Below are positions 2,637-55,486 of a stretch of DNA of 64,000 nucleotides, piece after piece (position 1 is the first letter of the stretch; every line of letters begins with the position of its first letter). A program made the position numbers and the translations under genes. A model generated the notes under the pieces. The model saw only the letters and a list, made by a program, of their open reading frames with translations, was not told the DNA's origin and searched no databases. Source of the DNA: Eledone cirrhosa (Eukaryota); assembly GCA_964016885.1 (NCBI GenBank), contig OZ024745.1, positions 35,278,001 through 35,342,000 on the forward strand. Reading direction: 5' to 3'.

Positions 2637-2868
2637 AATGAAGTGATTTCGTCGGAAAAGTTCAGGAAAAAAGAGTGCTCTATGTAGGTTACAGAGCTTA
2701 TTAGCTATGTAATAAACAACATAAGATAATTATAAAAAAATCCTGGTGTCTTTATTGACAGAACGACACCAGGATTTTTTCATTCTGATGAATGAAAGCA
2801 ATTTTGGTTACTTTCAAGAAACCACTGGTAAATGAAATGATTATCTTATGGTGTTTATTACATAACTA
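2637..2868 (+). mobile_element. Fold-back PLE-terminus mini-element with hammerhead at 2778-2837
   Basis: tttcatt-CTGATGA-stem II-GAAA-CCACTGG-TA-aatgaaa; inverted arms 2707-2750 vs 2765-2863; same family as 41345-41515. Confidence 0.75.
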
Positions 2869-3065
2869 TATATATATATAAATATATATATATATACACA
2901 CACACACACATACACACATACACACACCACACACACATACATATATATATATATATATACAAATGTTAGTTAAACACATATCTGGAATTAACGCCATACA
3001 TACACACATACACACACATACATACATACATACGTAGGTACGTACATAGTTACATGCATACATAC

Positions 3066-3324
3066 ATGGTGGCTGCCAACTCGTTTTCGAGTACGGCCAC
3101 TACTTTATATCCATGTAGGAGAACCCCTACCGATACGCTGAACGAGTGTGACTCCCCAGTCCAGCCAGCGACTTGAAACTCTGGTACAAACACTACACTT
3201 GTGACAATTATTGACATATAGTGCTGGGCCCATGGTACCATGTGACGACAAGTGCAGAGAGATCTCCAGATATAAAGCAATGCCTGTGCCGTGAAGCTTT
3301 TATAGTGAGCAAAGGCACTGCACA
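3066..3324 (-). mobile_element. 3' part of (TGTA)n-tailed non-autonomous RTE-like element
   Basis: Near-identical to 8170-8430, 5735-5992 and 41940-42185; flanked by (CATA)n. Confidence 0.75.
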
Positions 3325-4254
3325 ATATACATACATACATACATACATACATACATACATACATACATACATACATACATACATACATACATACATACAT
3401 CACAGCGACAGGCAACCGCACACGCTCAAGGACGCTTGCACCAATACTTAGACACACATACAAACATATGAACATAGACGAGGATTGACTTCAATGATTA
3501 CATTTGAACTATAAAGAGAAGTAGACAATGGTATTAAATGTTCACATGATTTGAAGTCTTTTTGTTTGTATTGAAGCTATGCTGGATTATTATAAACAAG
3601 TAATAATGTTTATAACGGTCATTAATGATTTCTAATCGTTACAAAAGATCACGCACTCATAGGAAAGACGAATAGTTCATTGAATTAACCCTCCCACTGT
3701 ATATAACTGTTGCGAAAACACTTGGATTAGTGGGTAAAATGTACAGACCATAATTGAAAGGCAATATTAAATGGTTTACCTTACAACGGAGCAGCAGGCA
3801 AAAAAGAAGCGGTACCTGTAATTCAACATGCCAACCATGTTACACAGAGAATCTCTAAGAACTATGTTAAGGCTTCACGCATTTGCAGGATGCTTAGCTA
3901 CTGTTACGTTAACTTCACGAGCAGGCTCTTCTGCTTGTTGGATCGGACGAACGTTCAACACTCATATAGCTGTTGATTATTCAAATCAACGAGAGACCGC
4001 CAGATCGTGTTATTTTTTACTGATTTAGTCAGAATGATAGGGTCTTGCCCCATAGACATTGCAGACCATTCTTCTTCTTCTTGGATACACACACTGATAG
4101 ATACTGTTCCAAACACTATATATATATATATATATATATATATATATATATATATATACATACTACATACATTCCTTTCTCTGTTCCCCTCTCGTTGATG
4201 GTGGAGACTTGTTAAAGTCTCAGACATTATTATCAGAGCCATAGAGAAACTGAC

Positions 4255-5290
4255 TTGTTCTTGGGCTACTATCCTAAAGTTAAAACCAGAGAAGGAAAAT
4301 CTACAACCCAATCTAGCAACATTTTTATCAATGGCCTAACTGTTTCACCAATATCTGGTGAGAACTGCCGCAGATACCTGACGATAGATGAGAATATATC
4401 CTATAATGGTATTTGTAATAAGGAACGCGTAACCAGGGAATATTACACGCACAATAAAACAATAGCTCACAATGTGTTTGCTGTGCCTGTCCTAACACCA
4501 ACGTTTGGAATACTCAATTGGACGATAAATGAAATCCGAGCAATTGATTACTAAAACTAAAAATGTCTAAACAACACCGGAAACCTCCACATCCACAGTG
4601 ACATAGACCGCTTCAACTTGAAATGTTAGCAGAGAGGCAGAGGCCTAACATCAGTCCAGACAGCAATAGAGTGTTGCATCATATCCCTCCGACAACATTT
4701 ACGAACCTTGAAGTGTAGGAGCCCATCTATTGAGCGAGTCTCTCTGCATGAGACACAAAAGATCATGAGAGTTGGGAAGGAACTCCTTGAAGGATACTCA
4801 CTGCATGATAATCAGGGAAATTGCCGCAGTGAATCCATTGAAGAAAAACTGCATGCTTATTAGCAAAAAAATTAAGTATGGATATGTTGCCAGGAAGCTC
4901 CAGAGTGAGAGTAATATAGACAAGTAATGTAGTCTATTTTGGACAAACAATCGCTATATTGGGGTTTTGCATAAAATACCTGATTCACAAATGGGATAGT
5001 GATGTAGACAAAACACCAAGATGTGACAACAAGTCCAAACTCTGCAAAATTAGCATCGATGAGATATCACCCGTGTCATCAGCAGCTGTCCAAAGATGTC
5101 ATCACGGTACTATCTACCCATGAGGCATGAGGTAGTGGCCAAAACACTGTTCAATGCAATCCGTAGAAAAGATGGCCCGACAATAAACACATTAACATTT
5201 ACAGCATTGCCGAAGACATACACACACACACATAATATAAAAGAGTACTGGTGGAATGTTCCAATCAAAACCCCAATAAAATGCAGACAA
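4255..5290 (+). pseudogene. Degraded R4/Dong-type (RLE) non-LTR retrotransposon ORF, RT C-terminus to zinc-knuckle/RHD region
   Basis: NKTIAHNVFAVPVLTPTFGILNW..EIRAID, HSDIDR, RGRGL and SSCPKMSSRYYLPMRHEVVAK motifs; many stops and frameshifts. Confidence 0.7.
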
Positions 5291-5562
5291 TAATAAAGAA
5301 CAATTGAGAAAAGGTAAGTTAACATGTTGGATGTTAGCCCTTCATCAGAGGATAACAGGAAATAAAAGATAGGTTGTTTAGGAAAGAGATGTAAATGAGG
5401 GCAGGCGAGAGTAAAGAAAAGATCAGGAGGAAGGAAAAGAGGACAGATAACATAAGTGCTGTTAGTCAGGTCATATATTCGTATGTATGTATGTATGTAT
5501 GTATGTATGTATGTATGTATGTATGTATGTATGTATGTATGTATGTATGTATGTATGTATGT

Positions 5563-52052: not shown

Positions 52053-52177
52053 TTCCACTGATGATTTATAAACGCCCACCTAAATATATTCTTACATGAA
52101 TGTATATTAGGCTTCTACATAAACTGGAAATATTCTCCGAATTTGTAGAAAACTTATAATGAAACAATTGTTTGGAA
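52053..52177 (+). ncRNA. Hammerhead with branched 96-nt stem II domain
   Basis: ttcca-CTGATGA-tTTATAA..two hairpins..TTATAAt-GAAA-CAATTG-TT-tggaa. Confidence 0.75.
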
Positions 52178-52944
52178 AGAGAGATATATTTTAACTTTAA
52201 TTATATCTCATAAAATAATACAACTGGCTTTTCCACATAATACATATTGTTAGCACCCCAAACACTTAAATTGGGTTTATATTAAAATATAACCGAATGT
52301 TTGTTGAGTGAGATGGTTACCAGTCAGAGATTAGCTTTAAACTATCTCTGTTATTGTATTAATTATATATATATATATATATATATATATATATATATAT
52401 ATACATACATACATACATACATACATACATACATGCATACCTGCAGACATACATATATATATATATATATATTCAGGGAATGAGAGAGTTAGAAAGTGAG
52501 AAAGAGAGAACGAAAGAAGGAGAGATAGGGGGGGGGGGAGATAGATGGAGAGAAAAAGAGAGACCAAGATATATAATAGTATCTATATTTTCTTACGGCA
52601 AATTACGAGTTCTTATTAAACTGGAGAAACATCAGTGTACGCACAGTCTCATATATGAGTACACGAAGAAACACCCAAACGAATTATATTCCAACGGAGT
52701 AATGTATACTCATTCTCGTATAGAAACGCATATATATGAATATATAGATGTATATATATATGCATATTTACATGTATGCATACATACATGTATGCATATA
52801 TAAATGTATATATATATGCATACATGTATATATGCATATTTATATATATATTTTGGAACGATTGACTATCGTCAAATCGGACCGAGGAAACAATGTTTCC
52901 ATTTGTTTTTCCAGTTGCTAATACTATCTAGCGGTCGCAACTCG

Positions 52945-53071
52945 AGGTAGACGGAGCAACGTGAAATAAAATGTCTTTCTCAAGGACATAACGCATCATC
53001 TGGTATGGGAATCGAACTCACAACCTCAAGATTGCGAATCCAGTTCTCTAACCACTCAGCCACACGCCTTC
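52945..53071 (-). mobile_element. tRNA-derived SINE (V-domain-like core)
   Basis: Minus strand tggctgagtggttaga..gagttcgattccc..gttatgtccttgag. Confidence 0.7.
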
Positions 53072-53861
53072 ATTAATGCATATATATATATATATATATA
53101 TATACATTTATATATGCATATATATATATATGTATATATATATTACATATATATATATATATAAATATATATATATATGCATATATACATGTATGCATAT
53201 ATAAATTTATATATATATATGCATATATATATATATATATACATATATGTATATGCATATATATATATATTTATATATATATGTGTGTATATGTATATAT
53301 ATATGCATATATATATATATATATATATAGTAATAATAAGGTATATATATATATGCATATATATATAAATATATATATGTATATGCCTATATATATATTT
53401 ATAAATATATATATGCATATATATATATATATATATAAATATATATATATATATATATATATGTATATGCATATATATATATGCATATATATATATGCAT
53501 ATATATATATATGCATATATATATATATATATAGCGGCGATGAACAACAACAACACCCAAACAAACAACACTGACCTAAGAGAAGTATAAATAAGTAAAT
53601 AAAAATAAAATTAAATAAAATAAGATAAATAAATACATACACAAGCACATAAACACACACTAGTCACCCAGCAGACACAACACTATACACACTAGTCACA
53701 CATCACACATAACACTATACACACACGCAAACGCATGCGCAAAGAAGACAAAATAAAATAAGATAAACAAACAAGCAAATAAATAAATAAATATATAGAC
53801 AGACTGAACAAAAAAATGGCGTAGACATACAACACAACAGGAGGAACAATGAATATAACAC

Positions 53862-53899
53862 CACTGACGATGTTGCAGATGTGCAACGAAAGATTTATG
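53862..53899 (+). ncRNA. Hammerhead-like motif in pLTR-like island 53530-54110
   Basis: CTGACGA-t-GTTGCA(gatg)TGCAAC-GAAA-GATT-TA; weak stem I; the island ends in atatgaccctccc like the PLE D family. Confidence 0.55.
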
Positions 53900-55486
53900 T
53901 AAATTATGTAAACTATATATATGTGTTTGTGTCTATATTGTATCTGTATTATTTTTGACCGCCGGTCAGTCAATGGCAACATTGAGGACCGAGTAAGTTA
54001 GATCGCAGATATATATATATAAAAGACAGCGAGAAGCGAAAACCAACCAAACAGTGAGTGTGTTCTGTTATTAATTCTGGCAATATTACGCAAATATGAC
54101 CCTCCCCAAATATATATATATATATATATATATATATATATTATATATATATATATATATATATATATATATATGCATATATATATATATATATATATAT
54201 ATATATGCATATATATATATATATATATATATATATATGCATATATATATATATATATATATATATATATATATATATATATATATATATGCATATATAT
54301 ATATATATATATATATATATATATATATATATATATGCATATATATATATATATATATATATATATATATATATATATATAAATAAATATATATATATAT
54401 AAATATAAAATATATATATATAAATATATATATATATATATATATATATATATATATATATAAATTTATATATATATATATATATATATATATATATATA
54501 TATATGCATATATATATATGCATATATATATGCATATATATATATGCATATACATATATATATATATATTTATATATATATATATATAGTAATAATAATA
54601 AATGTGAAGACTAAAATCCAAAGAGGGCTCGATAAGGATAAATATATATCAAATATATAAGAACCGTAGAGCAAATATTTATTAAAATAACAGATTAAAG
54701 TTTAAGCAAAGAATCGGTGCTTTCACTCTTAACGGGATCTACTGAGTTTCAGCAGCGATTCTTTGCTTAAACTTTAATCGGTTATTTTAATAAATATATA
54801 TATATATATATATATATATATATATATATATATATATATATATATATATATATATATATATAAATATATATATATATATATATATATATATATATATATA
54901 TATATATATATATATATATATATATATATATATATATATATATATATATATATATATATATAAAGATATATATATATATATATATATATATAAAGATATA
55001 TATATATATATATAAAGATATATATATATATATATATATATATATATATATATATATATATATATATATATATATATAAAGATATATATATATATATATA
55101 TATATATATATATAAAGATATATATATATATATATATATATATATATATATAAAGATATATATATATATATATATATTAATATATATATATATATAAATA
55201 TAAATATATATATATATATAAATATATATATAAATATAAATATATATATATGTATATATATTAATATATATATATATATAAATATAAATATATATATATA
55301 TATAAATATATATATAAATATAAATATATATATATGTATATATATTAATATATATATATATATATATATATATATATTAATATATATATAAATATATATA
55401 TATATTAATATATATGTTGATTTAAAACTGTTGATTTAAAACTGCACTGTTTACAAGTGTATTTTAACCTTCATATCATGTCTTCC

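Follow-up and report, generated by a model that had tools for sequence, protein, structure and literature searches.

Head-to-head Penelope-like element stubs in Eledone cirrhosa have junctions clustered at hammerhead-like motifs

A stretch of 64,000 nucleotides (nt) of the Eledone cirrhosa genome (contig OZ024745.1 of assembly GCA_964016885.1, positions 35,278,001 to 35,342,000; hereafter the window, with coordinates counted from its first letter) is AT-rich and animal-type, abounds in (TA)n and (CA)n, and contains short fold-backs, that is, local inverted repeats, many of which carry a sequence resembling a hammerhead ribozyme. The fold-back sites are head-to-head 3′-end stubs of Penelope-like elements (PLEs) in (TA)n, and their junctions cluster at the edges of the hammerhead-like motifs. 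Our preferred reading, to which we assign a probability of about one half, is that the two arms represent separately primed complementary DNAs (cDNAs) that were joined at integration through 0–6 shared bases. With regard to position, the bias of junctions towards the 5′ foot of the ribozyme core is well supported, in one family, and the bias towards positions just past the predicted cut is suggestive. The architecture of such junctions is already known; the positional bias was not met with in the literature searched.

An initial annotation of the window had noted that one arm of the fold-backs omits the ribozyme core in four families, with a similar deletion in a fifth, and had proposed either template jumping across the structured domain during self-primed second-strand synthesis or selective deletion that stabilises palindromes. 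As set out below, all five deletions were recovered, some with corrections, and the proposed origins fared less well.

Fold-backs in the window

Thirteen local inverted pairs were taken from a masked self-BLAST of the window; the long inverted duplications at 9853–17443, 36978–41446 and 38703–39925, the repeat cluster at 5584–6595 and the 57414/58192 pair were excluded from this count. A recognisable hammerhead or half of one is present in 9 of the 13 pairs, of which five are gapped over the motif in one arm, two have the motif in the loop between the arms, and two retain it on both arms (Table 1). The gaps of the first group (A, B, C54678, D35546 and J) range from 21 to 55 nt. Gapped J, the loop-type fold-backs at 47281–47465 and 7674 to about 7975, and the two counter-examples with the motif on both arms were absent from the initial annotation.

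The inverted family A arm at 2707 lacks 55 nt (2781–2835 to 2785–2839), corresponding to the whole type I hammerhead motif at 2778–2837, and the family B arm at 36414 lacks 29 nt (36499–36527 to 36501–36529, with 2 nt of ambiguity), the remaining bases matching at 60 of 61 positions. The family C arm at 54745–54796 does lack 22 nt relative to the intact copy at 50161–50321, but the microhomology at the join is AG (2 nt) and not CAG, since both CAG triplets are retained. Similarly, 21–23 nt are gone between two GCCGTC repeats in family D (35605–35642), but the CUGANGA box is missing in all three copies of this family and the loss therefore concerns only the 3′ half of the ribozyme. In family E, the 14-nt TGAC-to-TGAC deletion near 58125 exists, but no intact inverted partner spans the gap; the nearest inverted piece (57414–57490) consists of tail only.

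A single ancestral deletion per family was considered but rejected, since A, B, C, D and J/K all have intact sister copies; the gaps are therefore events of individual insertions rather than family traits. Assembly artefact was also rejected, as the arms differ from one another and end at family-fixed sites, and as two joints were found in two independent sequencing runs. Separately, a near-perfect 205-nt palindrome at 35893–36307 (203/205 matched) has a CTGAAGA box at its centre, without a GAAA counterpart close by, and its sister at 58703–58891 likewise stops some 10 nt short of that box.

Table 1. Coordinates of fold-back arms, copies and related elements in the window.
Feature	Position	Strand	Description
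Family A, tail-bearing arm	2637..2752	-	without 55 nt spanning the whole motif; same 3′ end site as copy 41345–41514
Family A, tail-less arm	2766..2865	+	intact type I motif 2778–2837; C3 at 2785; predicted cut after 2830
Family B, gapped arm	36412..36472	-	29 nt gone, from inside the CUGAGGA box through the end of stem I
Family B, intact arm	36473..36562	+	minimal hammerhead-like motif; C3 at 36495
Family C (C54678), tail-bearing arm	54589..54745	-	starts at core box; motif kept
Family C (C54678), tail-less arm	54745..54796	+	22 nt (core box to GAAA) gone; 2-nt microhomology
Family D (D35546), tail-less arm	35543..35601	-	GAAA half retained
Family D (D35546), tail-bearing arm	35605..35719	+	21–23 nt gone between two GCCGTC
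Family E copy	58033..58266	+	14-nt TGAC-to-TGAC deletion near 58127
Family J/K, gapped arm	58309..58423	-	51 nt gone over the ribozyme motif
Family J/K, intact arm	58437..58602	+	U3-A8 variant motif; GAAA box is GCAA
Family C (C47281), loop-type fold-back	47281..47465	+	short minus arm 47281–47308 begins at predicted cut; stem I common to long arm
Family L fold-back	7674..7975 (end approximate)		minus arm 7867–7674 has motif, C3 at 7825
Family J/K, counter-example	1088..1567		motif on both arms; (TA)n fills centre
Family D, counter-example	61434..61628		GAAA half on both arms
Family C, unbroken 3′ part	50161..51784	-	end of open reading frame, long untranslated stretch, hammerhead-like motif, 87-nt optional tail 50247–50161
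Near full-length PLE, another family	12135..15477	+	207-nt direct terminal repeats (99% identical) with hammerhead-like motif

The hammerhead-like motifs

A hand-made type I descriptor, tuned on these same examples, finds 13 motifs in the window against a mean of 0.18 (maximum 1) in 40 shuffled sequences. The Rfam hammerhead models gave no match at the gathering score, in the top 150 of 533 weak hits or in any of three narrow scans; the Rfam search otherwise yielded a weak transfer RNA (tRNA) at the gathering score and microRNA matches driven by microsatellites. The CUGANGA and GAAA boxes and the UH triplet occur in type I order and are canonical in families A, B, E and L, and J/K is a U3-A8 variant. 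Non-canonical cores are found in family C, which has CAGAAGA (U4A), and in family D, in which, beside the missing CUGANGA box, U16.1 is altered in two of three copies.

Helices I and II of the motifs comprise 3–11 base pairs (bp). Between the E-like copies at 34905 and 53864, stem II has undergone two double-sided changes, a covariation read from the alignment, and minimum-energy folding returned a three-helix-like form in some copies only. Overall, the motifs match the minimal hammerheads of PLEs in layout, and we regard them as putative ribozymes on the basis of their sequence.

Two further features of the motifs were observed. Copies of families B and C (34733, 36495, 47310 and 50316) have a U.U pair at the foot of a C-G stem II that is very short, which makes them unusual among hammerheads. 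In addition, independent copies of family A (2766, 37075/41345 and 39109/39519) begin 17–19 nt before C3 and those of family B (34712 and 36473) about 21 nt before it; a fixed 5′ end of the template would look so.

Position of the gaps

The paired arm bases, approximately 825 in all, contain about 19 substitutions and 5 gaps of at least 21 nt, one of them in a pair that is identical at 60 of 61 positions, in a tally to which the C54678 pair contributes 43 bases with 2 differences and from which pair F is omitted. Neutral decay produces far fewer large deletions per substitution than are seen in these arms, and the conclusion that the gaps are too numerous for ordinary decay is supported. All five gaps of at least 21 nt cover the GAAA box. 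The check put forward in the initial annotation, whether the gaps are placed non-uniformly along the arms, received an equivocal answer within the window, uniform placement having P = 0.003 over 12 fold-backs and P = 0.084 within the five gapped arms. A Fisher comparison of fold-backs with and without a ribozyme was dropped, as two of its supposed controls were unclean (I has a central CTGAAGA, and H resembles family D).

Measured from the predicted cut, the ribozyme-less arms resume at +1 to +15 in five of seven window cases (A, +6 to +10; B, +4 to +6; J, +6 to +8; D, +8 to +15; C47281, +1 to +6), compared with 1.1 expected (P = 0.0013 for an interval that was picked after the data were seen). 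The cases outside this interval are C54678, at −17 to −15, and L, in which the plus arm begins at 7868, 64 nt beyond the cut, and the tail is about 45 nt long.

Strand-switch joints in public reads

Four public runs were mapped to the unbroken family C copy (50161–52360), giving 40126 mapped reads from one DNA run, 28047 contigs from a second run with the same species label, and 20 and 66 contigs from two other organisms. The figures on joints rest on the best 15 of 104 joints and on 12 of 46 table rows, and thus describe one family and its best-supported subset. The relevant landmarks in family C are stem I at 50321–50317, C3 at 50316, the GAAA box at 50296 and the first base after the predicted cut at 50275.

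Eight of these best 15 joints are strand switches and seven are same-strand. The upper ends of the eight strand switches fall in 50309–50321 in six cases, that is, within −5 to +7 of C3, with one at 50272 and one far upstream at 50746; this cluster at C3 has a probability of about 1e-6 to 1e-11 under exponential-truncation nulls. The head-to-head geometry was confirmed by shared-letter counts in three of the four joints that have them. Seven joints lie at the motif, and their lower ends are spread widely relative to the cut (−29, −9, +4, +24, +35, +43 and +70); five of the seven lie beyond the cut, as uniform placement predicts (about 0.7 each). Therefore, the firm signal in family C is a stop of one arm at the ribozyme's 5′ foot, the other arm lacking the ribozyme largely by default. 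Among the 10 contig rows listed, four have an end at 50265–50274, one of which omits the whole motif via a 5-nt repeat. Read depth drops by 1.0–2.1% per base over 50271–50348 compared with 0.15–0.56% further upstream.

Several of these results weigh against the preferred reading. Uniform placement is not rejected within the five gapped arms themselves, a clean ribozyme-free control is absent from the window, and the gap rate of fold-backs (5/7) does not differ significantly from that of solo copies (1/6; P = 0.10). In the reads, just one of the eight listed strand switches has an end just past the cut, the step in depth is noisy, with bin-level drops of similar size upstream, and six of the eight strand switches occur in one run only, four of the eight having a single read start, so that library chimeras are possible there. 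The joint evidence comes, moreover, from a single family and from the best 15 of 104 joints.

Some individual contigs had further features. In one contig, from another organism, a loose end forms a palindrome whose centre is this 5′ foot. In the contig row 50265–50365, which lacks the whole family C ribozyme, 9 of 17 A are changed to G over 50327–50364, on the strand antisense to the element, and one of these nine changes looks like a common variant; the pattern resembles clustered adenosine editing of antisense or hairpin RNA, in a single contig. Several contigs skip about 750–800 nt of the family C untranslated stretch (50415–50422 to 51169–51212) and likely represent an internally deleted, non-autonomous subfamily.

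Arm ends and the origin of the inverted arms

An inverted, 5′-truncated, head-to-head copy with a one-sided tail is found in families A, C, D, L and H, and the 3′ ends fall at recurrent sites: 2637/41514 with the tail and 2865/36981 without it in family A; 54589/47465/50161 with and 54796/47281 without in family C; and 35719/61434/60771 with and 35546/61628 without in family D. In the public runs, 2379 reads and 140 contigs pass from the reference into (TA)n at 50247, the tail-less end. A (TA)n or TA-rich flank is present at 21 of the 22 arm or copy ends listed, the exception being the left arm of B, and a target-site duplication is indistinguishable inside a (TA)n target. These fixed 3′ sites on both arms point to two priming events. 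As a separate observation, the two C54678 arms disagree at one site (54750–54760) that also varies between copies 47281 and 50161; two templates would account for this single site.

We postulate that the element protein would nick both strands of a (TA)n target and prime a cDNA on each, at two internal start sites. The cDNAs would tend to stop on reaching the ribozyme, either at stem I or at the 5′ end of a cut RNA, or alternatively just after copying it, when the new DNA could pair with itself. A longer cDNA may snap back, copying 4 to about 28 of its own bases, and its new end may then anneal to the other cDNA through 0–6 bases. Without any snap-back the ribozyme would come to lie in the loop (at 47281, both strands of stem I would be the shared bases), a short snap-back would mimic an internal deletion in one arm, and, if both cDNAs passed the ribozyme, the motif would be kept on both arms.

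The relation between tail and gap bears directly on the model offered by the initial annotation, in which one folded-back cDNA gives rise to the entire second arm and skips the structured ribozyme in the process. Among seven cases, the ribozyme-less arm is the tail-less one in C54678 and C47281 and is level with its partner in B and J, all of which this model fits; stem I at 47281 would supply a 5-nt primer, and self-priming has been proposed for Penelope palindromes (Arkhipova et al., 2013; PMC3846280). In A, D35546 and L, however, the ribozyme-less arm holds a 45–76 nt tail that its partner lacks, and so cannot be just a second-strand copy of that partner; nor does the model explain the fixed end site of the second arm. 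Self-primed second-strand synthesis as originally stated is thus contradicted in three of seven fold-backs, and a complete fold-back copy seems to us quite unlikely as the general explanation. What stands of the proposed template jump is that the breaks are tied to the ribozyme and joined through 0–6 nt of microhomology, with direct repeats of 6 nt in D and 4 nt in E and an ambiguity of 2–4 nt in A, B, J and C.

Alternatively, the jump may have taken place on the RNA, the reverse transcriptase (RT) passing over the ribozyme, for example on a self-cleaved transcript held together by stem I, such that one of the two cDNAs was born without it; the junctions would then be an in vivo footprint of the fold or of cleavage. 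Such a jump could affect either arm, the missing stretches of A, B and J, and that of a contig row (50265 to about 50327), extend from at or before C3 to 4–16 nt past the cut, and the starts of the A and B copies before C3 are as a fixed RNA 5′ end would give. The expected landmarks are nevertheless missed by C54678, which resumes 15–17 nt before the cut, and by six of the seven read joints at the motif, which resume away from it, and none of the seven same-strand joints among the best 15 of 104 has lost the core on the same strand. In addition, family C has U4A and family D has no canonical core, and in an anole element cleavage is unneeded in vitro and the available account reports no RNA reads ending at the cut (Frangieh et al., 2024; PMC11167929). 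We therefore regard an RNA jump as doubtful, although the data separate it poorly from the joining of two cDNAs, and ribozyme geometry is causal in both.

A bolder reading would take the junctions as a genome-scale record of the hammerhead acting in vivo: the RNA would be self-cleaved, one cDNA would run off it or jump across it immediately 3′ of the scissile bond while its counterpart halted where the folded core has its 5′ foot, and joining would follow. We offer this as a tentative and rather improbable possibility. If it is true, the ribozyme sets the length and shape of insertions, a function undetected by the in vitro work on the anole element. More generally, if junction ends are pinned to ribozyme landmarks, genomes with many copies would provide a read-out of the stops of cDNA synthesis, and families with live and dead cores could be compared to identify folding or cleavage as the cause.

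The gaps could also have arisen after insertion, by slippage in unstable palindromes from one short direct repeat to another across a hairpin, which would make the bias a minor point of repeat decay. Slippage accounts for gaps in either arm and suits best the 6-nt repeats of D and the 4-nt repeats of E, which has no intact partner; microhomology deletions have been described in rotifer Penelopes (Arkhipova et al., 2013; PMC3846280), and the within-arm uniform null (P = 0.084) is compatible with it. It leaves the loop-type joints and the cluster at C3 unexplained, however, and pair B, which is young (1 difference in 61), has a gap whereas pair K, which is older (4 in 116), has none, and A, B, J and C offer only their 2–4 nt of ambiguity. 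We consider this origin rather unlikely for the set as a whole.

Finally, imperfect palindromes may be more stable or less silenced and so be selected, or the overlap may be due to chance, since the motif fills much of each short arm, near its centre. Any deletion would serve selection, long near-perfect palindromes such as 35893–36307 persist, and the cluster at C3 far exceeds chance expectation; selection for stable palindromes, the other proposal of the initial annotation, found no support in any data of the analysis. Both explanations appear very improbable, and the joining of two separately primed cDNAs remains the reading we prefer.

Coding parts and other elements

In the unbroken 3′ part of family C, the end of a GIY-YIG-type open reading frame (ORF; 51784–51251) is continuous with the motif and has Atlas matches of 0.95–0.97 to GIY-YIG clusters; a Pfam search of this ORF gave no match. 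A cysteine-rich linker precedes the endonuclease. Among the stub families, a GIY-YIG ORF upstream of the terminal repeat, the criterion for an endonuclease-bearing (EN+) PLE, was found in family C only, and no RT was preserved next to families A–E, J or L. A 22-nt family C pattern had no matches in viral and metagenome contigs, and the family C protein had no relative among 65 candidate stretches.

The near full-length PLE of another family (Table 1) has a broken RT-like ORF and a GIY-YIG domain (Pfam GIY-YIG, E 3.9e-06). It appears to be inserted in a broken ORF that is enclosed by inverted repeats of 925 nt (9853–10777 and 16541–17443, 95% identical), each with a hammerhead-like motif, the whole forming a set of nested PLEs at 9853–17443. 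The RT-like ORFs at 10760 and 12863 had no Pfam match. A large nested inverted duplication (36978–37836 / 40681–41446 and 38703–39925, 96–99% identical) includes copies of family A. The window also contains a near-complete long interspersed nuclear element (23998–28961) with a gag-like first ORF and an endonuclease/RT ORF (Pfam RVT_1, Exo_endo_phos), a repeat (about 195 nt) that occurs both dispersed and in tandem arrays (62886–63927, 6921–7314 and 18776–18996), and a weak tRNA-like match (43507–43580, minus strand, 32.5 bits) that is probably the head of a short interspersed nuclear element.

Comparison with known systems

In L1 twin priming, a cDNA is primed at each of two nicks in the target, and microhomology joins the pair. 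The inverted piece of L1 is a different, upstream part of the RNA, whereas here the arms duplicate the same 3′ part.

Likenesses are also found among PLEs themselves. Head-to-head palindromes, self-priming and microhomology deletions have been described in rotifer PLEs (Arkhipova et al., 2013; PMC3846280), and inverted truncated copies, one-sided tails and microsatellite targets in PLEs at large (Craig et al., 2021; PMC8557442). The stubs described here resemble EN+ PLEs in their head-to-head truncated copies, junction palindromes, one-sided tail, (TA)n targets, microhomology deletions and, in family C, a GIY-YIG ORF upstream of the motif. Their tails are longer, at 45–87 nt compared with 30–40 bp, and the available parts of these two accounts contain nothing on junctions clustered at hammerheads or on loss from one arm (PMC3846280; PMC8557442). 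Likewise, full-text literature searches, which left subscription papers and supplements uncovered, returned no account of PLE junctions gathered at the hammerhead or of its absence from one of the arms.

Metazoan PLEs are known to carry minimal type I hammerheads, with opposite-strand pairs 100–700 bp apart (Cervera and De la Pena, 2014; PMC4209133). The motifs of the window share with these their type I layout, a short or palindromic helix III, an extra base after A9, the U3-A8 variant (J/K) and the occurrence of opposite-strand pairs, and they differ in the U.U pair at the base of a 2–3 bp stem II in B and C and in the U4A of C; the parts of that study available to us do not report the asymmetry of the arms. 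A non-long-terminal-repeat retrozyme, composed of tandem units each with a complete hammerhead (10.64898/2026.07.22.740005), was considered and rejected, as copies of A–E, J/K and L are solo or inverted and never tandem.

In R2, the cDNA 3′ end primes on its own cDNA before joining at 5′ junctions, and internally gapped products are formed (Zhang et al., 2024; PMC11371274; PMC11331408), which recalls the snap-back that we postulate. R2 differs, however, in that it belongs to another retroelement class, has a ribozyme like that of hepatitis delta virus, joins one primed cDNA to target DNA, and was studied in an engineered system.

Both the formation of inverted junctions and the role of the hammerhead are stated to be open in the available parts of recent accounts of PLEs (Craig et al., 2021; Frangieh et al., 2024; PMC8557442; PMC11167929). 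The protein of the Anolis Poseidon element PAc cuts and extends both strands of AT-rich DNA, and two internal start sites define its tail (Frangieh et al., 2024; PMC11167929). The ribozyme of PAc is dispensable in vitro, and inverted junctions lay outside that study. Two-strand cutting of the PAc kind, combined with two start sites, would yield two anchored arms such as those found here.

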